The notes below the pieces were generated by a model that saw nothing but the letters and a program-made list of their open reading frames with translations, was not told where the DNA came from and ran no database searches. Positions 1 to 59,357 of a DNA stretch of 59,357 nucleotides are shown here, one piece after another (the first letter of the stretch is position 1; every line of letters starts with the position of its first letter). A program made the position numbers and the translations under genes. This DNA comes from a virus (taxonomy: Duplodnaviria; Caudoviricetes): the IMG/VR virus record IMGVR_UViG_3300033148_005636, positions 1-59,357 of that record; one strand, 5' to 3'.

Positions 1-114
1 CCTCGGCATCGCGAATATCGCCCACCACAAAGCAGGCGAAGCGGTTCGATTTCAGCATTGTAGCGCATTGCGCGACGATCTCGCGATAGGCGATCAAGAA
101 CGTCTCGAAGTCTT
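1..114. repeat. Terminal direct repeat, left copy (circular assembly overlap)
   Basis: Identical to 59244-59357; the methyltransferase reading frame runs through the junction. Confidence 0.97.
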
Positions 115-574
115 CGGCCTGCGACAAGTCGCACGGGTCATCGGAGTAGACTTCCAAGTCGTAGTAGGGCGGGCAGGAGAAAATGAGGTCATATTCGCCG
201 GGGACAAGTTGCGCTATAGCGCGGCTATCGCCGACGACCCATTTAGGCCGTTGCCCGCCGGACGCATCGGCCTCCGTCCCGAGCATTTCGTCCGCCTGCT
301 CTTCATTTGCCTTGATCTGGTGCGCCGATAAGTCAACGCCGACATAGCGCAGCCCGACCTTCGCGGCAACTATCCCCCTCACGGAGCCGCCCGCAAACGG
401 GTCAAGCACGGCCCCTCCTTCCGGGCAAAACCAGCGGTATATGAGTTCGCATAGTACAGGGTCGAAGACGGACGTGCCCGTGGCGGGCACGGTGACGCCC
501 TCGGGCATCGGCCCGCCATCATAGGCCATCCCGGCCTCGCCAAACCGTTCGGGGCCTGCTATCTCAGGATTCAC
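1..574 (-). CDS. DNA amino-methyltransferase catalytic part, 5' portion (continues across the origin to 58993)
   Basis: GGAGG-7nt-GTG start at 574. Translation contains GTSVFDPVLCELIYRWF, motif I LDPFAGGSVRG and motif IV FSCPPYYDLE. In frame with ORF 58993..59340; 274 aa in total. Confidence 0.85.
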   Translation of the reverse strand, partial: MNPEIAGPERFGEAGMAYDGGPMPEGVTVPATGTSVFDPVLCELIYRWFCPEGGAVLDPFAGGSVRGIVAAKVGLRYVGVDLSAHQIKANEEQADEMLGTEADASGGQRPKWVVGDSRAIAQLVPGEYDLIFSCPPYYDLEVYSDDPCDLSQAEDFETFLIAYREIVAQCATMLKSNRFACFVVGDIRDAE

Positions 575-794
575 TTGCCCGCCTCCCGGTCGTGCAGAGC
601 GCCTCCTAAGTTTCTCATTCAATTCTCCCGCCCCCCCCCCGAAGCGTATGCCCTTGCGTCAACCTTTTTCATTGCCGCGCCCCCTCGCGACGATCAAGTG
701 GCATCGGGCCTCCTCCCGGTGCAATGTTCACTGGACGCCCCCCCCGCTTGCGATAGAAGTTCAGGCCCGGCTCCGTAACCTGTTCGGCCTGCAT
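571..794 (-). other. Chain of three coupled mini-ORFs with poly-G tracts inside the split methyltransferase locus
   Basis: Mini-ORFs 794-669 (41 aa), 672-619 (17 aa) and 618-571 (15 aa), joined by TAATG, ATGA, TGAATG and GTGA junctions. Minus-strand G tracts at 804-810 (G7), 738-745 (G8), 680-684 (G5) and 631-640 (G10). Confidence 0.7.
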
Positions 795-2614: not shown

Positions 2615-2921
2615 TTTGCCCTCCAAACCGCCCGAACTTCAACCAGGGCAGGTACTGCGGCATGTACCACGGCGACTCCAGAGTCTGCCGCATCGCATTC
2701 GCCCGCTCACCGGGCTCACCACGAATCTGGTAGGCCCGGTGCCGCCAGTTTCTAAGCGGGTATTCTACAACGTCTTGCCAGGCACCACAGCGTGTGCATC
2801 GCAACTGTCGCCTCGTGTAGCTCCGAGAACATCGAAACCGGAAGCTTTGCAAGTAATCAGGATAGGCAGGATAGACGCGCCACCTGTGCCCAAGCAACCG
2901 GCACAACAGTCTGCGAAGCAT
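2607..2921 (-). CDS. Hypothetical protein (DUF1660-like CxxxGHxW start)
   Basis: MLRRLLCRLLGHRW...CTRCG; TGATG coupling with the upstream gene. Confidence 0.55.
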   Translation of the reverse strand: MLRRLLCRLLGHRWRVYPAYPDYLQSFRFRCSRSYTRRQLRCTRCGAWQDVVEYPLRNWRHRAYQIRGEPGERANAMRQTLESPWYMPQYLPWLKFGRFGGQND

Positions 2922-3235
2922 CACTCTCGCCCCCCCGCCCCGTCCGCCCTCTGCGCTTGCGATGATAACCACTCGCCAAGGCGCCGCGTCGTGAGTGCGT
3001 CGATGCACATCGTATCCGGCCACAAACTACCTGTGGTCAGCAACCGCCAGACCAGCCGCAGACGCTCGCCCGGACTGGGATGTCGCCGAGGGTGGCCGGA
3101 CACGTACAGCAGGCCCCCGAATTGTGGCTCATCGCTCACCTGAAAGCGCAAGTCGCAGCACTCGGACGCGCAATCGCAAGTCACGATGGCGCGCGGTGTG
3201 CCGACCCCATCATCGTCGCACAGGTAGAAGCTCAT
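2921..3235 (-). CDS. Hypothetical protein
   Basis: GGAGGG RBS, Cys-rich N-terminus, fits the gene tiling. Confidence 0.55.
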   Translation of the reverse strand: MSFYLCDDDGVGTPRAIVTCDCASECCDLRFQVSDEPQFGGLLYVSGHPRRHPSPGERLRLVWRLLTTGSLWPDTMCIDALTTRRLGEWLSSQAQRADGAGGRE

Positions 3236-11500: not shown

Positions 11501-12606
11501 CCCTGAGCCTCCGGTCTCTCTTCTGGGTGCTCAGCGTAGTACGCCTCCCACCGCGCCTCCCGCTCTGCATCCAGCTTCCGCTGCAATTCCCATGCCCGGT
11601 CAAGGTCCGGGTCCCTGTCATCCTCCGCTTCCTCGCGCTCGCGCTCGATACGTTCGAGCCACTTTGCGGGCAGATGCTTCTCCGTGGCCTTCGGCGGGTA
11701 GCGCTCCAGCAGCGCTACGGCGTCGTCCTCGTCGGTGATGTACCAGTCCGCCTCGCCCTCTATAGCGATGATCAGTTCCACGAGCCAGCGGTCGCAGATA
11801 TGCTGTGACCACGGGAGATCGAAACACGCATTGCGCAGGTTGGGGTAGTTGAGCTTCTTCATGCCCACATCGTCGGGCAGGTCGTCGTAGGGCCGTGCGC
11901 CGTTGCCGTTGCCGTTGGAAGTACTCTCTTGAGACTCTTCGTCGTGTACGTCTGTGTCTGGTCTAGTCTGGTCTAGTCTAGTCTGGTCTAGTCTGTTGCC
12001 GTCGTGTTCGGCACCTGCCGGAACACCTGTAGGAACACCTGTCCCAGCAGGTGTCGAAACAGGTGTTGGAACAGGTGAGGGGAGAGCTGTGGGCTCAGGT
12101 GCAGCGCCGTCCGAGTCACCTGTGCGAGACATGAGGTGCACTACCCGGTCACATGCGGCACTTAGCCCGACACGAAGCCCATACCTGTCGGGCGTGACGT
12201 TCTTCAGGTGGCCGTACTGCTCGGCGAATGCAACCAGATCAGCGGGCGGTTCCCAGTCTGGCGGTGGCGGGTACTCAGGGCCGCTCACGCGCAGCCAGTT
12301 CGGCCTGTCGTGCCGGTGGTAGTCGACGATTTCGAGGAGTTCGTCGCCGTCTACCTCATAGCGCCGGATCAGCCCGCAAGCCTCCATCGCGTCGAGCGCC
12401 CGCGCCGCCTGTGTAGGCGTTATGCGCGCCAGTCCCCCGATGACGTGGGCGAACCTGGCGGGGTCGGCGGTGAACCTGCCGAAGTCGTCGGCGTGGGCCT
12501 TGAGCGGCCAGTATAGGGCGAGGGCCGTTTTCGACTTCCGCCACAGGCAGCACAGGCGCTCAGACAGCATCGCGTCACGGTGCACCTTCGCCCACTGCTT
12601 CGCCAT
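11497..12606 (-). CDS. Phage replication initiator (replisome organiser-like)
   Basis: WAKVH...LYWPLKAHADDFGR...LDAMEACGLI winged-helix N-terminus, a low-complexity repeat-bearing linker, and position upstream of dnaB. Confidence 0.75.
   Translation of the reverse strand: MAKQWAKVHRDAMLSERLCCLWRKSKTALALYWPLKAHADDFGRFTADPARFAHVIGGLARITPTQAARALDAMEACGLIRRYEVDGDELLEIVDYHRHDRPNWLRVSGPEYPPPPDWEPPADLVAFAEQYGHLKNVTPDRYGLRVGLSAACDRVVHLMSRTGDSDGAAPEPTALPSPVPTPVSTPAGTGVPTGVPAGAEHDGNRLDQTRLDQTRPDTDVHDEESQESTSNGNGNGARPYDDLPDDVGMKKLNYPNLRNACFDLPWSQHICDRWLVELIIAIEGEADWYITDEDDAVALLERYPPKATEKHLPAKWLERIEREREEAEDDRDPDLDRAWELQRKLDAEREARWEAYYAEHPEERPEAQG
11956..12101. repeat. Putative replication origin: (GTCTR)8 plus phased CACCTG/CAGGTG iterons
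   Basis: GTCTR x8 at 11956-11995. CACCTG at 12012, 12024, 12036 and CAGGTG at 12048, 12060, 12072, 12096, all on a 12-bp register. Confidence 0.7.
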
Positions 12607-12621
12607 GGCCACCGGACCTCC

Positions 12622-12788
12622 TCAGAACAGACAAGCCCCCGCAGGGACCGCGATCCTGTCCAGCCAAGACGAGGAGGCCGCGTTAGTGATCCCTGCGGGG
12701 GCAATCCGGTTGATGTACATGAAACGAACCTCCTTGAAGCGCCCTGGCTGGACAGGTTCACCATACAACGTCTCGCGCCCTATGTCAA
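12622..12788 (-). promoter_or_regulatory. Promoter plus structured leader (two interleaved stems, 32-aa leader ORF) upstream of the initiator
   Basis: TTGACA(12788-12783)-17-TATGGT(12765-12760). Inverted repeats 12745-12756/12655-12666 and 12690-12702/12635-12647. AAGGAGG-ATG ORF 12720-12622. Confidence 0.65.
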
Positions 12789-12805
12789 TCGCGCTGTCGC
12801 GGCCG

Positions 12806-12890
12806 TTGCCGCACCTCGCCTTACCTTGCCATGCCTCACCCTGCCTAGCCATGCCATACCCGGCCTCGCCTAGCCTCGCCGCACCGCGCC
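12806..12890 (-). ncRNA. GGY-NN pentamer array A (17 units), candidate guide RNA
   Basis: 17 consecutive perfect GGC/GGT+NN units starting at the base after the TAA of the RAMP-like gene. Confidence 0.8.
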
Positions 12891-13421
12891 TTACAAAGCA
12901 CTCCACGCCGTGACGACGAACCGACCCATCGGCCCCTTGCAGTCTGGCCGCCAGTCCAGTACGCCGACGCGCGACCCAGCGTCGTCAATGATCTGGCGCA
13001 ACTGCTTCTCCGTCACGAGCGCCGGGTCGTACTGGATCGTCGCCTCGATGCGCCACTCGTCGAACCGTGGGCGGTGCCGCACCACACGGCCCTTCGTGCT
13101 GGGCACGACGACCGAGCGGCTGTCGATGGTGTACTCCTGCGGGTCGAGGATGAGGTACTCGGGCTCGATGGCGATACAGGCCGCGACGGGCTTCTGGAGG
13201 CTCGCGCGCCCCTTGCCCTTGGAGTAGACGGCAGCGCGAATGAGGGCCTGCCGCAGGGCCTCCGCCGGGATGTACAGCTCGCCGTCCGGGGTGCGATAGG
13301 CGGCGATCTCCGCCTGGTCCTCGGGCGTCCGCTTCTCCAGCGGAGGGTCGATGTCCTCCAACGGAAATCTGTGCATGAGCAGCGGACTGATACCCGTCAG
13401 TTCGATCTTCACGGCGTCCAT
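12891..13421 (-). CDS. Standalone Cas7/RAMP-like protein (176 aa)
   Basis: N-terminal strand IELTGISPLLMH, YIPAEALRQAL (compare Csm3-type IPGSSLKG), and a C-terminal Gly-rich loop GSRVGVLDWRPDCKGPMGRF. RBS AAGGAG 10 nt before the ATG. Confidence 0.8.
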   Translation of the reverse strand: MDAVKIELTGISPLLMHRFPLEDIDPPLEKRTPEDQAEIAAYRTPDGELYIPAEALRQALIRAAVYSKGKGRASLQKPVAACIAIEPEYLILDPQEYTIDSRSVVVPSTKGRVVRHRPRFDEWRIEATIQYDPALVTEKQLRQIIDDAGSRVGVLDWRPDCKGPMGRFVVTAWSAL

Positions 13422-13471
13422 CGTCGTCACGCTCCTTCTGTGGTCTGTCTCCTTGACATGCCTCGCTAACG

Positions 13472-13596
13472 TCACCCTGCCTCGTCTTGCCACACCTTAC
13501 CCAGCCCTACCGTGCCCGGCCTTGCCGGACCCCGCCCTGCCCTGCCTCGCCAGGCCGCGCCCCGCCAGGCCAGGCCTTACCGGGCCGCGCCTCACC
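13472..13596 (-). ncRNA. GGY-NN pentamer array B (25 units), candidate guide RNA
   Basis: 24 of 25 units are GGY-NN; one degenerate unit (GAC-GA at 13482-13486). Confidence 0.8.
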
Positions 13597-13619
13597 CCGA
13601 GAAGACTCGTAAGCGTCCC

Positions 13620-13734
13620 CTGCCTCGCCCCGCCGCGCCGGGCATTGCCACACCTCGCCCAGCCGTGCCAAGCCTCGCCAGGCCACGCCTCGCCACGCCT
13701 CGCCATGCCATGCCTAACCTCGCCACGCCAAGCC
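13620..13734 (-). ncRNA. GGY-NN pentamer array C (23 units), candidate guide RNA
   Basis: 22 of 23 units are GGY-NN; one degenerate unit (TGC-CC at 13640-13644). Separated from array B by a 23-nt linker that can form a hairpin. Confidence 0.8.
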
Positions 13735-13745
13735 GTACATGCACA

Positions 13746-13907
13746 GCCCCGCGCATACCAGAGCCGCTGTGTGGGGGGAGACAGCAATCGGTACGCGCGG
13801 GGCAATCCGCGTGTCGGGTTCGGGCCAGTTGTCCGCGGCTCATGACTCTTCATCGATGCTGTCTCCCCAGACATCTTCATCCTACCACATCCGCGCGGCC
13901 CCGTCAA
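13746..13907 (-). promoter_or_regulatory. Sigma70-type promoter and pseudoknot-like leader for the array/RAMP locus
   Basis: TTGACG(13907-13902)-17-TAGGAT(13884-13879) with extended TG. Stems 13857-13868/13775-13786 (12 bp) and 13790-13803/13746-13759 (14 bp, one G-U). Confidence 0.7.
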
Positions 13908-14452
13908 GCCCCGATGACCCAGACCTGCCGCACACCCGCGTTGTCGTCGCCCCACAAGGTGCCGCGCCGGGGTTCCCAGAAGTCCAGCCACAGGTCGGCG
14001 CCCTTGCGACGGGCGACGCGGTCGTTGCGGCGCGCGCCGGTATCAAGCACCTGCCGGATGCCGGTTCGCGGGTGCCAGACCCACGTGTATGCGGGCAGCA
14101 GGTTGGCCGCCACGCACCGCTCGTCCACACCGTGGCCGTAGCGCGTCCCCTGCCCGCGCGGGAAGCCCTCCTCCGGGAAGTAGGTGGTGAGCCACGCGCG
14201 AAGCCGTCGCACGTCGCCCTCCAGCGCCCGTTCGTATCCCTCGCGTTGCCAGTCCTCAAGTTCTCCGAAGCAGCCCGATAATGCCTTGGTCGCGCAGCGT
14301 TGCAGCGGTTCGTCGGGCAGGTCCGCCACAGCCTCGACGGCGCTGTCCGGTTCAGCACTCTCCACCACTCGCGGCCCCCACGCCACGGCGCACGAGACAC
14401 CCAGCAGCGTCGCCATCAGCCCGCACGTCACCGCTGTGCGTGGTGTCCTCAC
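13904..14452 (-). CDS. Secreted or membrane 3D/DPBB-like domain protein
   Basis: N-terminal hydrophobic segment; LTTY...CVAAN...VLDTGA...LDFW resembles 3D-domain motifs. Confidence 0.55.
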   Translation of the reverse strand: MRTPRTAVTCGLMATLLGVSCAVAWGPRVVESAEPDSAVEAVADLPDEPLQRCATKALSGCFGELEDWQREGYERALEGDVRRLRAWLTTYFPEEGFPRGQGTRYGHGVDERCVAANLLPAYTWVWHPRTGIRQVLDTGARRNDRVARRKGADLWLDFWEPRRGTLWGDDNAGVRQVWVIGA

Positions 14453-15651
14453 TGCACATCCTCCTCCTCGCAGCCATCGATGCGGAACCGCTCCGCCCCG
14501 TTCCACTTCCGCGGCTCCATCAGCCCCCGCAGGGCCTCAGCGGCGGTGTCGGCCTCGCCATGCCCGAATGGGTCTTCGTCGCGCTCGACAAGGGCCAGCA
14601 GGCGACCGAGGGCCTTCGGGTCCGGGTCGGGGAACAGGACCTCCGTCACCTCGTCCTCGTCAAGGCCCGCGTCCGTCAACACCTCCGCCGCCCGCTGCCG
14701 CTCCACGCTGCGCTTGAGCACGTACTCGCCGTCATAGACGGCTGCCCCGTCACGCTCGACGACGTGGGCCGGCCGCCCGCGATAGGCCACCTTGCCCGCG
14801 GCGCTCACCGGGCCGTGCTCGCGGACCCATGCACTCACCGCATTGCGCAGGCGCTTGAGGTCGGCTTCGTGGGCGACGATGCGGCGCAGGGCGTCCTCAG
14901 CGTCCGCGGTGCAGGTGATCGCCACGCCGGTGCCAGCCGCGTACGGGCACACGTGCGTGTAGTCGCACCATGCACACGCGTGAGGTGAGGGCGTCGCCTC
15001 GAACCGCTTGTTGGCGGCGATGCGTCGCGCAATAGCCACCGCCCAGTCCGGCCGCAGTTCGTCGGGGGCCATCCACCACTCGTGCGTGACCCCGTTGCCG
15101 ATGTAGTGCGCGCGCAGCATCACCTCGGATGCGCCGCTGAACTGCGGCATTCGCAGGAGCGCCCAGCCGTACATCATCAGTTGGGCAGGCGGCTCGTCGG
15201 GGCGGTCCTGCGCCCAACTGGACTTGTAGTCCGTCACGAACAGCCGCCCGTCCGCGGTCGCGTACTCCACCAGGTCCACGCGCCCCTTGAACTTGCCGAG
15301 GCCCTCGGGCAGGTCGGCGGCGACTTCGCGTTCCACGCCCTCGCCGTCCGCCACCACCAGCTCGCGATTGAACTCAACCTGCCGGGCGAATGCGCGGCAG
15401 AGTCTCTCAACTCCGAGCCCGTCGGGGCGGTAGCCGACGGCCTGCTCGTCCGCCCACTCCCAATCGCGCGGCAGGCCCGCCTCAATGCAGTGGCGGCCGT
15501 ACATCTCGGCGAACTCGTGCACGAGCCGCCCGCGGATGCAGGCTTCGCTCTCCTGCCTCTGCTCGCGGTCCACGTAGGCGAAGCGCCATGCCAGCGGGCA
15601 GCGCGCGTAGAGCGACAGGCTGCTGTAGCTCACGTGCGTCGGTTCGGTCAT
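14449..15651 (-). CDS. PD-(D/E)XK RecB/Cas4-like exonuclease
   Basis: SYSSL...CP, GRLVHE, GRVDL, DYKS, QLMMY and CAWCDYTHVCP Fe-S cysteines. Confidence 0.88.
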   Translation of the reverse strand: MTEPTHVSYSSLSLYARCPLAWRFAYVDREQRQESEACIRGRLVHEFAEMYGRHCIEAGLPRDWEWADEQAVGYRPDGLGVERLCRAFARQVEFNRELVVADGEGVEREVAADLPEGLGKFKGRVDLVEYATADGRLFVTDYKSSWAQDRPDEPPAQLMMYGWALLRMPQFSGASEVMLRAHYIGNGVTHEWWMAPDELRPDWAVAIARRIAANKRFEATPSPHACAWCDYTHVCPYAAGTGVAITCTADAEDALRRIVAHEADLKRLRNAVSAWVREHGPVSAAGKVAYRGRPAHVVERDGAAVYDGEYVLKRSVERQRAAEVLTDAGLDEDEVTEVLFPDPDPKALGRLLALVERDEDPFGHGEADTAAEALRGLMEPRKWNGAERFRIDGCEEEDVQ

Positions 15652-24168: not shown

Positions 24169-26748
24169 TTAGAGCAGGTCGGCTATGTCTATCTGGTCGC
24201 TGGCGTTGGCCTTTGTGCCGTCTATCTCGACGCGGTAGGTGGCGACCTCGCTCGTGCCGTCGGCCATCGTGCGCGTGATTTCGATGGTAACCAACTCGAC
24301 TGTCTTCGGCACCTCGAACGTGATCTGGCCGCTGGCGTCGGAGGTGAATGCGTTCTCTTCGGTCAGCACGACGAGATCGTCCGCGCCCAGGGCGGCGGGA
24401 TATACGTCGAGCACTTTCAGGGACCAGGCCGCCGCACCGACCGCATCGCCCTGTTCGTCGGCGCAGTTCATGTAGAGCACATACTTGTCGGGGCTGGAGG
24501 GCGAGGGGATGGTCTGCGCCGTCAGCGTGATGGTGCCAGTGCTGTTGGCGCTGACGGTAATCTCCGTGTTGCTCGCCTTGTAGTTGACGGTGCTGGGCGT
24601 GAGGAGGTGGTAGGTGCCGCTGTCCAGGTTGAACGTGACGTTGCCGCTGCTGTCCGTAGTCTGCGTCGCGATGACGGCACTTTCGTCGGCGTTCTTGCAC
24701 GTGACCTTCAGGTCGCTCACAGCATTGCCGCTGCCGTCCTTGTAGGTGCGCGTGACGGTGTAACTCCCGCTGCCTGCGCCGCCGGTGACCCACGCGCTGT
24801 CACCACGGTCGCGGATGGCCTCCAGGCTGTCAGCCGACGGGTCGAACGTGCCGCCAATGTCGCTGGGCGCGGAGGCCGCCTTGCTCGCAAGCGCCTTGAT
24901 ACCGCCCAGCACGTTGTTGTCGCCGCTGCCCGCCCATGCGCCCAGACGCGAGAGGATGGTGTCCTGCTTGGCCTCAGTGGCGTCGCCGCCGGAGGTCAGC
25001 GTGCGCGTCGCATAGCTCCAGATGTCGGCTATCAGAGTGCCGAAGCCCGTGAGTGTGCGGCTTGCGGCGCCCCACACGGCAGTCGCAACGTCCGCCGCGC
25101 TGTGCGAGCTGCGCGTGCTGATGGCGGCGTCGATGTTCGCACCATCAAATGGCGTGCTGTCCGAGAGGATGGCATCCCGCACGTCGTTTGCGGCATGTGA
25201 TGACCGGGAACTGATGGCCGCGTCTATATTCGCCCCGTCAAACGGTGTGCTGTCAGACAGGATAGCGTCGCGAACGTCATTAGCCGAATGTGAGGAGCGC
25301 GAACTCACAGCAGCGTCGATGTTGGCTCCGTCGAACGGCGTCGCATCGGACAGTATATCATCCTGCGTCAGCGCCGGGTCCACAGCGTACCCGGACCACG
25401 CGTTGTTGCTACCATTGTCTACCTTGCCGCCGTCGGAGCCACCGGATGCGCAGAAGGCGAACGTATTCTGGTCCGCACCGCTAACCGTCTCAAACCCGGC
25501 TGTGGTGTTGCCTATGCTGGTGCAGTTCAGAAGCTGGTTGAGGTCTGCGCCCGTCCCGCTCAGGTAGAAGCCCCGCACGGCGGCTCCAGCGCCGACTGCT
25601 TTGCAGTGGTCGATGCGGTTGTACTTGCTGGCTACGTCAACCCCGCTCGTTGAGTGTTCGATGCTTCTGCAGTTCCTGAGCCACGTGGCGTCGCCGTTGA
25701 TGTCGAAGCCCACGGAACACTTGCAGGCGCAACAGCCTTCGACGGTAACGTAGTCCGCCCCGGCCTGCACATCCAGCCCGACGCTCGCGCTGCTCGGGTG
25801 GAATATCGCGCCGCTGATCTTGCAGGACGACGCGCTGATCGTCAGGCACGCCGAGGCCCCACCGCTGTCTATGATTACGCCGGGCTCGCAGAACACAACC
25901 ACGCTGGCCGTGGAGAGCGTGAGGTTCGATTCGCTGTAGGTTCCGGGAGCTATGACTATGTGGTCTCCGGCGCTTACGGACGAGAGCGCCTTGCCAATCG
26001 TGGCGAATGGCACATCGGGAGCGTCGCCGTCATTGCCGTCATTGCCGGTAGTGCCGTTGACGTAGTAGGTCGTGAAGAACGGAGCGGTGTCTATCTGCCG
26101 CAGCCTGCGCCCGGCGGAGGTGGGCACATTATGCGTCGCGCCGGTTAGCTGCTCGTCCCATACGCCGTCCGCTATCTCGTCAACGGCGTCATCGGCCAGC
26201 GCGTCGGCGTCGATGGCATCGGTATCTATGACTGCGGCGGTGATGGCTGCGTTGGCGAGGGAGTAGCCGGTCTTGTCATTGTTCGCGGTCAGGGCGTCGG
26301 CAGTCTTCACGCCCTCGACCTTGTTCGTAGCCGGGTCGTAGCCAGCGTCGGCGAAGTCTTTCAGGTCGGTAGCGGACTGGCTATCGCCGCCGATTTGCGT
26401 TACATCGACCTCCAGCACATCGCTACCGGCAACGAGCGAGTCGTACACATCGGCGGGCAGGACCATGAACTCGTGCCAGACGGGTAGCGCACCGCTCACG
26501 GCAATGGCGACGACGAGGCTTCCCAGCGTGCCGGTGTCGGTGGCGTCGAGCGGGCAGCCGTACCATCCGTCCTCATCGTGCGTGCAGCCGGTGGCGTCGT
26601 GCTTCTGGGCAAAGTCTCCGCCGTTCTTGCTCAACCGCACGTCCGCCTGACTGATGGTGAGCCCGGTCTCAGGGGTGACGCCATCGGTGCTATCGACGAA
26701 CGGCCCGATCTTGCGCGTCGCAGCCGTAGACTGTCGCAGGAATTGCAT
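24169..26748 (-). CDS. Tail fibre/spike with parallel beta-helix domain
   Basis: TYYVNGTTGNDGNDG...PFATIGKAL (DUF1565/pectin-lyase-like), beta-helix repeats, and C-terminal Ig-like domains. Confidence 0.75.
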   Translation of the reverse strand: MQFLRQSTAATRKIGPFVDSTDGVTPETGLTISQADVRLSKNGGDFAQKHDATGCTHDEDGWYGCPLDATDTGTLGSLVVAIAVSGALPVWHEFMVLPADVYDSLVAGSDVLEVDVTQIGGDSQSATDLKDFADAGYDPATNKVEGVKTADALTANNDKTGYSLANAAITAAVIDTDAIDADALADDAVDEIADGVWDEQLTGATHNVPTSAGRRLRQIDTAPFFTTYYVNGTTGNDGNDGDAPDVPFATIGKALSSVSAGDHIVIAPGTYSESNLTLSTASVVVFCEPGVIIDSGGASACLTISASSCKISGAIFHPSSASVGLDVQAGADYVTVEGCCACKCSVGFDINGDATWLRNCRSIEHSTSGVDVASKYNRIDHCKAVGAGAAVRGFYLSGTGADLNQLLNCTSIGNTTAGFETVSGADQNTFAFCASGGSDGGKVDNGSNNAWSGYAVDPALTQDDILSDATPFDGANIDAAVSSRSSHSANDVRDAILSDSTPFDGANIDAAISSRSSHAANDVRDAILSDSTPFDGANIDAAISTRSSHSAADVATAVWGAASRTLTGFGTLIADIWSYATRTLTSGGDATEAKQDTILSRLGAWAGSGDNNVLGGIKALASKAASAPSDIGGTFDPSADSLEAIRDRGDSAWVTGGAGSGSYTVTRTYKDGSGNAVSDLKVTCKNADESAVIATQTTDSSGNVTFNLDSGTYHLLTPSTVNYKASNTEITVSANSTGTITLTAQTIPSPSSPDKYVLYMNCADEQGDAVGAAAWSLKVLDVYPAALGADDLVVLTEENAFTSDASGQITFEVPKTVELVTIEITRTMADGTSEVATYRVEIDGTKANASDQIDIADLL
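25083..25362 (-). repeat. Three tandem 93-bp (31-aa) coding repeats
   Basis: ILSD(A/S)TPFDGANIDAA(V/I)S(S/T)RSSH x3; ends approximate. Confidence 0.85.
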
Positions 26749-58188: not shown

Positions 58189-58996
58189 CGTCATTGCCCT
58201 CCCTGCGCAGGTACAGCTTCCCGTCCTTCGCACGGCGGTCTATCAGTTCCCAGCCCATGAGCCGGGCCGCATCGCGGACGCTGATGTAGTGCGTCCCGTC
58301 GATGAACAGGGGCTCGGCTGTATTTTCGTAGCCGGGTAGGGCGACGACGAGCCGGGCCGCCCCAAGCCTGTCGCCGGTCGGACCTCCATCGCGCAGGATT
58401 TGCAGCGTCAGTTCCGTGGCTTCGTAGTGCATCGGGTCGAGGTACGCCCGCGAGAAGTGCCCGCCCCAGGCAAAGCCCCAACGGTTGGCGTACCTCGCGA
58501 GGCGGCGGCAACTGCCCGGCACTTCGTACGGCTCGCAGTGAAAGTTCCATCGGGCGGCCCGGTACTCCTTGCCGGAGTTGTTGCAGAGGTGGTGAACGTT
58601 GAGGTCGATGGCTATCCCCCACGAGTGCGGACTCGGCGTCCGGCTGCCACGGGTCGTGCGGCAGTTGTAGGTGCCGCCGTAGTCGTCCAGATCGACGAGG
58701 TGCTCTTCGCCCGCTTTCTGCACGTCGTGGAGCCAGCCGATCATGGCGTCGGCGATCTCCCGATGGACCGTCGCCCGCCCCACAATCGGCAGGCGCGCTG
58801 TGACCAGACTGCCGCCGTCGCACCTCCGCCCGAACCAGTAGCGCACGTGCCCGGCGTCAATCGCGCCCGTCCGTCGCAAGGGCTTGATTACTCCGTCCCT
58901 GGTAGGCATAGGCCACGCCTCCCTGTCTGCTGCCATTATACCCGCCGCGCGCGTCACGTCAACTCTTCGCAGGCGCGGTTTGTACCGCATGGTCAC
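58178..58996 (-). CDS. M15-family peptidoglycan peptidase (endolysin) with C-terminal copper-amine-oxidase-N-like domain
   Basis: YNCR...SPHSWGIAIDLN...WGG...DPMHYE; C-terminal FIDGTHYISVRDAA. Confidence 0.85.
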   Translation of the reverse strand: MTMRYKPRLRRVDVTRAAGIMAADREAWPMPTRDGVIKPLRRTGAIDAGHVRYWFGRRCDGGSLVTARLPIVGRATVHREIADAMIGWLHDVQKAGEEHLVDLDDYGGTYNCRTTRGSRTPSPHSWGIAIDLNVHHLCNNSGKEYRAARWNFHCEPYEVPGSCRRLARYANRWGFAWGGHFSRAYLDPMHYEATELTLQILRDGGPTGDRLGAARLVVALPGYENTAEPLFIDGTHYISVRDAARLMGWELIDRRAKDGKLYLRREGNDDGA

Positions 58997-59357
58997 GCGT
59001 CGGACAAGTACTCACCGAAGGGCACCGCTGCACTGAAATCCCGCGGTATCCGTTTCGGGTCGCCCTTGAAGAAGACGAGCACGTTCTGATGTGTCTTGCC
59101 CAATTTGCGGTAGTTCGCAAATTGGCGGCCCACGCGTACGGGCAGCGAGCCCACCGCTGTGACCATTACCGCGTCGTTGTACAGTCGCATCCCGGCATCC
59201 TCAAATGCTCGAATGGTCTCCGTGGGCAGGCCACGGTAAAAGCCCTCGGCATCGCGAATATCGCCCACCACAAAGCAGGCGAAGCGGTTCGATTTCAGCA
59301 TTGTAGCGCATTGCGCGACGATCTCGCGATAGGCGATCAAGAACGTCTCGAAGTCTT
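58993..59357 (-). CDS. DNA methyltransferase catalytic part, 3' portion (continuation from 574-1)
   Basis: RFACFVVGDIRD...RKLGKTHQNVLVFFKGDP. Confidence 0.88.
   Translation of the reverse strand, partial: DFETFLIAYREIVAQCATMLKSNRFACFVVGDIRDAEGFYRGLPTETIRAFEDAGMRLYNDAVMVTAVGSLPVRVGRQFANYRKLGKTHQNVLVFFKGDPKRIPRDFSAAVPFGEYLSDA
59244..59357. repeat. Terminal direct repeat, right copy
   Basis: Identical to 1-114. Confidence 0.97.

Follow-up and report, generated by a model that had tools for sequence, protein, structure and literature searches.

A probable canonical VIPR system with GGY/NN pentamer arrays in a complete 59-kb tailed phage

The vipr locus and its arrays

The window analysed here is a stretch of 59,357 nucleotides, and represents the entire IMG/VR virus record IMGVR_UViG_3300033148_005636, a tailed phage genome of 66% G+C that is recorded with a direct terminal repeat (DTR) of 114 bp and as 100% complete. 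On its minus strand, from 13907 down to 12806, the order is promoter, leader, array C, linker, array B, ribosome-binding site (RBS), the gene vipr and array A, where each array is a run of five-nucleotide GGYNN units and vipr encodes a small protein of the RAMP (Cas7-like) kind. We consider this locus very probably to be a canonical GGY/NN system of the class named VIPR, for Viral Interference Programmable Repeat, carried by a complete, uncultivated 59-kb tailed phage. The coordinates, the unit counts (23, 25 and 17, with 63 of 65 opening in GGY) and the minus-strand order had been given in an initial annotation of the same DNA, and all of them hold on a re-count (Table 1).

The arrays combine a constant scaffold with a variable content. 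GGC or GGT opens all but two of the units in arrays A, B and C. Taken by unit position, the entropy comes to 0.11, 0.11 and 0.75 bits over positions 1 to 3, versus 1.79 and 1.93 bits for the NN at positions 4 and 5. The longest perfect GGY run of period 5 extends over 22 units, far more than chance would give; the same measure reaches 3-4 units in 20 genomes simulated with a Markov-1 model, and 3 units in the remaining genome. Over both strands of the 59,357 bases, the array caller found no further array of at least six units, and the three arrays of the genome all adjoin vipr, on the vipr strand. No terminator-like site was seen between the leader, array C, array B, vipr and array A.

The ends of the arrays have an organization of their own. 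In array C, 18 clean units precede a single broken unit and a closing GGCGA GGCAG block; in array B, 22 clean units precede GACGA GGCAG GGTGA. About 25 nt at the 3′ end are common to both (GAGGCAGGG.GACG.TTA.CGAG), while the end of array A differs and resembles the array end of the sister phage introduced below. Judged from these letters, the last units of arrays B and C appear not to be free guide but a semi-constant 3′ end common to both. The claim of the initial annotation that the last two bases of each unit vary freely stands for the NN taken as a whole, but fails for these last units. None of the tails of arrays A, B and C folds better than shuffles (z ~0), and the small hairpin of the linker does not exceed shuffles in stability (z = 0).

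Upstream of the arrays, the sigma-70-like consensus scan found two sites in the 3.2 kb between 11400 and 14600, with a shuffle mean of 0.3, and the putative promoter of the locus is one of them. Its sequence is also kept in a sister phage, IMGVR_UViG_3300010330_000010 (57,890 bp), a genome that is collinear with the window at about 93% DNA identity, with mosaic replacements. The leader has a minimum free energy (MFE) of -58.5 kcal/mol (z = -2.2), and equally good folds were obtained in 6 of 200 shuffles. Since both arms of its long stem are exactly identical in the sister phage and the roughly 80 nt between them have diverged, the stem is probably functional, a hint given by the comparison of two sequences. 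The leader had been called structured in the initial annotation, which agrees with the kept arms and the z-score and is tempered by the shuffles that fold as well. Rfam models run over 12400-14100 gave nothing above chance, with no hammerhead and no ribozyme.

Table 1. Features of the vipr locus in the window, together with the CRISPR-like array in the sister phage and its matching site
Feature	Position	Strand	Description and basis
Promoter (putative)	13907..13879	minus	TTGACG, 17 nt, TG-TAGGAT; sigma-70-like consensus scan
Leader	13872..13735	minus	About 138 nt, long stem with arms GGGGAGACAG / CTGTCTCCCC; fold and comparison with sister phage
vrRNA array C	13734..13620	minus	23 GGYNN units (22 GGY); unit caller
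Linker / 3′ tail of array C	13619..13597	minus	23 nt, GGGACGCTTACGAG and small CGAG-TCTT-CTCG hairpin; sequence
vrRNA array B	13596..13472	minus	25 units (24 GGY); unit caller
Array B tail and translation start region	13471..13422	minus	RBS AAGGAG at 13437..13432
vipr gene	ATG 13421 to TAA 12891	minus	176 aa, minimal RAMP (Cas7-like) protein; homology and fold
vrRNA array A	12890..12806	minus	17/17 units GGYNN; begins at the base directly after the vipr stop codon; unit content
Sister CRISPR-like array	L002 (sister locus) 2761-2972		Four 29-nt repeats, 61-nt period, 32-nt spacers; stands where the window has its two upstream vrRNA arrays
Spacer-3 site in window vipr	13406..13375	minus	Codons 6-16; 32/32 match; AAG at 13409..13407 precedes

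The Vipr protein and its family

The open reading frame (ORF) of vipr is intact, and every invariant residue of the family is present in it. The best PDB sequence match of the 176-aa protein is chain D of entry 36pp, named 'SUSP1 Vipr protein' (phmmer E 1.2e-9), and a profile of 35 relatives matches the same chain with E 1.7e-12, over query residues 6-171 and chain residues 4-187. Among the PHROGs the protein matches phrog_4652, a family without a name (E 2.7e-22), and the Pfam scan returned no family, with no Cas7 or RAMP match. According to the available text on the SUSP1 structure, GGY is contacted by H17, R138, D177, W178 and R179 (10.64898/2026.04.26.720927, section 5). These residues align with H17, R117, D156, W157 and R158 of the window protein; in the 35 relatives H17 and R117 are invariant, D156 and R158 are conserved in at least 90%, and the W157 position is mostly F.

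The AlphaFold2 (AF2) model of Vipr has a predicted local distance difference test score (pLDDT) of 91.8 and a predicted template modelling score (pTM) of 0.86. Its elements follow the order beta-alpha-beta-beta-alpha-beta, with a hairpin at 98-120, and the thumb and G-loop were placed by alignment to SUSP1. Foldseek was run against a PDB library reaching up to 8 April 2026, 36pp not included, and its best matches are the Cas7-family backbones of type VII (Cas7) and type III (Csm3), with E 1e-6 to 1e-4, template modelling (TM) scores of 0.5-0.65 and 9-17% identity. At E<=0.001 the matches amount to 89 PDB chains; of those listed, almost all are Csm3, Cmr, type VII Cas7 or Cas7-11. In this model, Vipr folds as a minimal Cas7-type RAMP. 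The RAMP/Cas7 fold on which the initial annotation had staked its reading is thus borne out, by the Foldseek matches to Cas7/Csm3 and by the homology with SUSP1 Vipr; its term 'Csm3-like' is apt at the level of the fold, but not at that of sequence, where identity is only as low as given above.

VIPR systems were described in April 2026 (10.64898/2026.04.26.720920), and further preprints cover their structures, PDB 36pp (10.64898/2026.04.26.720927), and other aspects (10.64898/2026.10.15.759431, 10.64898/2026.10.21.760802); what is said of them here follows the available parts of these texts. In those parts, Vipr is a minimal RAMP with one protomer per unit (10.64898/2026.04.26.720920, 10.64898/2026.04.26.720927), and vrRNAs consist of 9-16 YNNGG units and then a 3′ tail (10.64898/2026.04.26.720920). 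The preprints further state that GGY is sequestered, each being held jointly by two adjacent protomers, that NN pairs with double-stranded DNA as NN-x-NN, with one target base skipped per unit, and that the complex silences transcription without cutting. The natural targets that they name are satellites, prophages and rival VIPR systems. Natural systems are reported to be without self-targets in their own genome, and the repeat code to be common to all seven VIPR types (10.64898/2026.04.26.720920, for the code Results section 9).

Much of this had been anticipated. The name VIPR, which the initial annotation had proposed with reserve, is correct by the homology with 36pp chain D and by the descriptions in the preprints, and its nuclease-free RAMP filament that holds GGY and presents NN matches the mechanism in their available text. 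Two details are amended by the same papers. There is one protomer per GGYNN unit, as had been supposed, but each GGY is held by two neighbouring protomers; and NN does pair, the target being double-stranded DNA read with one skipped base. The system can no longer be called a candidate in the sense of one not yet described, as VIPR is already in print.

The context of the locus is viral and free of a cas operon. PADLOC models of cas1/2/3/5/6/10 were matched by none of the 64 ORFs of the window, and the ORF at 14449-15651, with a Cas4-like PD-(D/E)XK domain, is the sole cas-like gene of the genome. A repeat-spacer array was found in the window neither by Tandem Repeats Finder (TRF) nor by a crude k-mer scan, the latter being insensitive, as it missed the array of the sister phage too. 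With these limits, both absences agree with what the initial annotation had reported. Every defining feature of VIPR that was tested is present, including homology, RAMP fold, GGY residues, same-strand arrays and a viral context without cas operon. Two typical features, an accessory (vap) gene and a structured invariant tail, are not cleanly so.

The linkage between gene and arrays extends far beyond the window. The Vipr family counts 818 proteins at E<=1e-3, of which the best outside the window has 81% identity and many lie at 55-67%. The family profile was used to fetch 80 IMG/VR loci; 54 were tabulated, and the 26 left out are mostly near-identical copies. Same-strand arrays (runs of at least 5 GGY units) adjoin the homologue in 53 of the 54 tabulated loci, where the same array caller made one call on the opposite strand, and they do so in 14 of 17 loci from GTDB metagenome-assembled genomes (MAGs). 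The homologues in this linkage set span 30-95% protein identity, and the titles of the MAG records that hold them include Planctomycetales, Chloroflexota, Verrucomicrobiota, Methanoregula and others; many phyla are thus represented in the Vipr clade. Homologues with flanking arrays, of constant GGY and differing NN, were what the initial annotation had proposed to look for, and they are found in these viral and MAG loci and in the array of the sister phage.

Relatives of at least 50% identity form a sub-clade in which 71 distinct arrays reach a median of 17 units (quartiles 12.5-22.5). AA/AG is favoured in the final three units of these arrays, where the entropy is 2.7 bits versus 3.9 in the array interior, and GG mostly comes next. 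Because the sub-clade has this long median and these biased ends, the long arrays of the window and their GGCAA/GGCAG endings are traits of the clade. Some IMG/VR relatives (L033, L036, L043, L075 and L081) carry very long or numerous arrays, with 72/78 units in one run in L033, 58/65 units in L036, and 13 successive arrays downstream of vipr in L043.

Sister phage, guide content and genomic setting

The Vipr of the sister phage is 95% identical to that of the window. Its downstream array has 25 units, about ten of them extra, and retains both GGY and register. An identical 41-nt block (8 units, window 12815-12855) is common to array A and this array, and the units on either side of it differ. 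Therefore, guide content turns over by blocks with GGY and register kept, and the sister pair provides a natural before-and-after view of guide arrays that change on a lasting GGY scaffold.

Upstream of vipr, the sister keeps the promoter and leader, but the segment corresponding to window 13431-13858, with both upstream arrays, is swapped for an insert of 1,745 bp that contains a 19-bp hairpin, TnpB and a repeat-spacer array. The TnpB is 405 aa long and looks intact, with the Pfam domains HTH_OrfB_IS605, OrfB_IS605 and Cas12f1-like_TNB, and its 3′ end carries a weak Rfam Transposase-2 (omega-RNA-like) match (E 0.008, short of the gathering score). This element of the IS200/IS605 type, at L002 1380-2700, stands just past the conserved VIPR leader and directly upstream of the repeat-spacer array. 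The relatives of its TnpB are metagenome proteins without names.

One spacer of the sister array, spacer 3, matches the vipr gene of the window over its full length (Table 1). The sister's own vipr matches the same spacer at 31 of 32 positions, and the change is at the first protospacer base (I6V). The AAG next to the site is, as we take it, the protospacer adjacent motif (PAM) of type I-E, and the 29/32 repeat-spacer geometry presumably recalls types I-E and I-F. Degeneration is strongest in the repeat copy closest to vipr, which is how the old end of a CRISPR array looks when read from its leader side; spacer 3 would be the oldest of the array. Spacers 1 and 2 have no match in either phage, the 8.6 kb of DNA private to the sister contain no cas genes, and comparison of the repeat array with GenBank phages, with PLSDB plasmids and with the CRISPR-DR families of Rfam gave no match.

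We tentatively suggest that the sister array could be a phage-borne mini-CRISPR, which would exploit host Cas proteins or TnpB and be aimed at the vipr of relatives, its carrier being protected by the change at a seed position; this is the best of the readings, though at somewhat less than even odds. Instead, part of a host array may have been captured, or an escape mutation may have come first and the capture afterwards. In a wider sense, and with the same reserve, the VIPR locus might be a battleground where guide cassettes from two different RNA-guided systems replace each other behind a single promoter and leader, and this would, if real, be a natural case of CRISPR targeting directed against VIPR. 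The closest parallel in the available preprint text is that of vrRNAs directed against the early vipr codons of rivals (10.64898/2026.10.15.759431). The words 'spacer' and 'CRISPR array' in the available text of three VIPR preprints led to no such case of CRISPR against vipr. If true, a spacer aimed at vipr would widen the published picture, in which vrRNAs are directed against the vipr genes of rivals, so that it includes conflict of one kind of RNA-guided system with the other. The boldest version is a Vipr locus working with a repeat-spacer array, that is, the VIPR-to-CRISPR intermediate which the available text of the discovery paper draws as hypothetical, and this we consider improbable.

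The sister phage also has a gene for a Mom-family protein at L002 3806-4774 (Pfam PF25680, E 5e-42), between the downstream vrRNA array and the replication initiator, with no counterpart there in the window.

The content of the guides was assessed by composition and by search. For the 57 NN dinucleotides in the clean parts of arrays A, B and C, the best fit is to codon positions 1-2 of the phage's own genes on the sense strand, with a log2 likelihood of -220.5; a uniform model scores -228, and the other five combinations of frame and strand score -245 to -290. The NN composition would agree with the published wobble-skip pattern, a weak argument from composition alone. Targets were searched in the own genome, the sister genome and 96 related loci, with no scan of public collections made; shuffled guides served as the null, and every best score, that with the one-nucleotide skip included, falls inside it. 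In the own genome, guides A, B and C gave no self-target under skip 0, 1 or 2, which a working system would lead one to expect, and skip 3 gave the trivial self-match alone. In the opposite direction, 151 distinct foreign arrays were compared with the window genome and reached 17/20 at best, inside the null, and the guides of the sister's array have no target in the window.

The genome around the locus is that of a tailed phage. Its PHROGs structural genes include terminase, portal, major head protein and tape measure protein, and its replication genes include a DnaB-like helicase, a replication initiator and a PD-(D/E)XK exonuclease. The VIPR locus sits in the replication module, between the Cas4-like exonuclease and the genes of the replication initiator and DnaB. 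The ORF of 200 aa upstream has no Pfam or PHROG family. The relatives of the phage's terminase (TerL) are scattered, as they include psiM2 and Gordonia and Acinetobacter phages at 25-50% identity. Sampling of the lineage is thin, in that the capsid protein, used as bait for related phages, brought back the sister and one 61%-identical contig alone.

Directly past array A lies a second strong promoter, TTGACA-17-TATGGT (minus strand, 12788), which is assigned to the downstream genes. Next come an ORF of 32 codons that has a strong RBS (12720..12622) and long-range complementary segments, which end in a terminator-like hairpin at 12649..12634. This region, 12613-12788, precedes the replication-initiator gene and is kept in the sister phage, and it looks like a leader-peptide or attenuator arrangement.

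At the ends of the record, a minus-strand ORF runs past the start of the window (622..2, open-ended), and PHROG matches to DNA methyltransferase are split between the ORFs 794-1654 and 58993-59340. It is therefore probable that one gene spans the terminal repeat, an indication that the assembly is circular or permuted and that these are not physical ends. Elsewhere, a 93-bp tandem repeat of 2.6 copies with 75% matches occupies 25118-25363, within an ORF of 859 aa (24169-26748) that has no PHROG family.

Weighing of the readings and comparison with known systems

From the anatomy of the locus, its family membership, the fold and conserved contact residues of its protein, the co-occurrence of gene and arrays and the guide turnover in the sister phage, a course of action can be proposed, in which transcription and processing, formation of the ribonucleoprotein (RNP), the one-nucleotide-skip rule, silencing and the identity of targets would follow the papers by analogy. 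One promoter at 13907 would drive the leader, array C, array B, the vipr mRNA and array A as a single transcript, and the arrays would be cut out and released as vrRNAs, as in the published systems. By homology with the SUSP1 complex, in which the filament forms only with RNA, Vipr protomers would coat each vrRNA, one per 5-nt unit, with GGY flipped into pockets of H17, R117 and the D156-W157-R158 loop and NN left exposed. The filament would pair NN-x-NN-x with double-stranded DNA, one target base being skipped per unit, and would stay in place as a transcription roadblock with no nuclease. Genes carried by competing phages, satellites or prophages of the same host would be the likely targets.

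Several points weigh against the reading of the locus as a canonical VIPR system. The identity to SUSP1 Vipr is low, that to GenBank phage Viprs is about 28-30%, and K33, which contacts the skipped base from the helical bundle of SUSP1, falls in a gap or insertion relative to the profile of the shorter protein. The SUSP1 clade has an 'invariant structured 3′ tail', which is matched in part only, by arrays B and C and not by array A. Additionally, no conserved accessory gene lies within about 2.5 kb of vipr. Five neighbour genes and a sixth about 3 kb upstream were found in no relative's locus but the sister's, and in an all-against-all clustering of the ORFs of 81 loci only vipr recurs, save for one group of near-identical phages. 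In the available text, a vap gene is 'typically' present, and six vap genes are named for seven types (10.64898/2026.04.26.720920); a vap-less type may therefore exist. Guides A, B and C have no target in the 57,890-bp sister genome, searched with full-length guides and 10-unit sub-guides, nor in 79 IMG/VR VIPR loci (397 kb) or 17 MAG loci (126 kb). The search for sequencing runs listed no RNA run, and one DNA run with a small share of words. Finally, the targeting rule is demonstrated in the available preprint text for type II systems alone.

The strongest of the alternatives is that of a locus derived from VIPR which acts unlike type II, whether by RNA binding or cleavage, by another skip rule, or in the control of the phage's own genes or replication. 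It would suit the closest folds, which are RNA-targeting backbones of types III and VII, the position within the replication module, the failure to find an external target in the sister genome and the related loci scanned, and a helical-bundle region, the one that holds the skipped base in SUSP1, which is shorter here. However, the residues that hold GGY are conserved, and therefore the RNA geometry should be the same; the missing own-genome match under skip 0-2 speaks against self-regulation, and the repeat code is, in the available text, common to all types (10.64898/2026.04.26.720920). We regard this alternative as improbable.

Decay is less likely still in our estimation. The locus would in that case be decaying or orphaned, either inherited but unused or with arrays that serve the protein of a rival phage. 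The sister phage has lost both upstream arrays, solo vrRNAs and the loss of vipr are known in SUSP1-like phages from the available preprint text (10.64898/2026.10.15.759431, section 8), and the lack of a target in the scanned sequences and of a listed RNA run would fit as well. Against this stand an intact ORF with all invariant residues, the conformity of 63 of 65 units, and an intact promoter and RBS. Moreover, the guides differ between the sisters while GGY stays, which means selection on the scaffold and not drift. The remaining alternative, a slippage microsatellite or low-complexity coding repeat that came to lie beside a RAMP-like gene by chance, can draw on the period-5 rows that TRF reports at the arrays and on the long ORFs that cross them, but is effectively refuted by NN positions that carry 1.8-1.9 bits where slippage, as the initial annotation had argued, would homogenise all five, by the linkage of arrays with vipr across the viral and MAG loci, and by a 5-nt period with which no reading frame can be maintained.

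The canonical VIPR reading being preferred, the value of the locus is confirmatory, in that it would offer a clean and complete GGY/NN system in a high-GC environmental phage. It also represents a large and little-studied clade of Vipr, with long arrays, apparently no vap gene, and repeat-like 3′ ends.

The best references for comparison are the type II systems of Escherichia phage SUSP1 and of a Pseudomonas fulva prophage. As in these, the window has a homologous minimal RAMP with the same GGY-contact residues, whose gene is flanked to either side by GGY/NN pentamer arrays of the same strand. As in type II, the system is phage-borne, without cas genes and without self-targets, and its guides turn over between close relatives. 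The differences lie in size and in the ends. Vipr has 176 aa here versus 202 aa in SUSP1, with a shorter helical region, and the arrays have 17-25 called units (clade median 17) versus the 9-16 reported for type II. The 3′ end consists of semi-constant AA/AG units and a short unstructured tail, with no pseudoknot, and there is no conserved vap gene.

Judging by the fold matches, Vipr shares with the Cas7 proteins of class 1 (Csm3, Cmr4, type VII Cas7) an RRM core, a thumb hairpin and a glycine-rich loop, and, if the mechanism in the available VIPR papers applies, one protomer per fixed RNA period and bases flipped by the thumb. Unlike class 1 CRISPR-Cas, the window has no repeat-spacer array and no Cas5, Cas6, Cas10, Cas1 or Cas2. 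The period is of 5 nt instead of 6, each unit has three of its guide bases sequestered, and the identity to class 1 Cas7 stays within 9-17%.

Phage-borne mini-CRISPR arrays directed against related viruses are known from archaeal viruses and huge phages. The array of the sister phage resembles them in being short and without cas genes, in having a spacer against a relative's gene, and in the mismatch within its own copy. Unlike them, it lies within a VIPR transcription unit where it replaces the vrRNA arrays, is aimed at vipr, and adjoins an intact TnpB.

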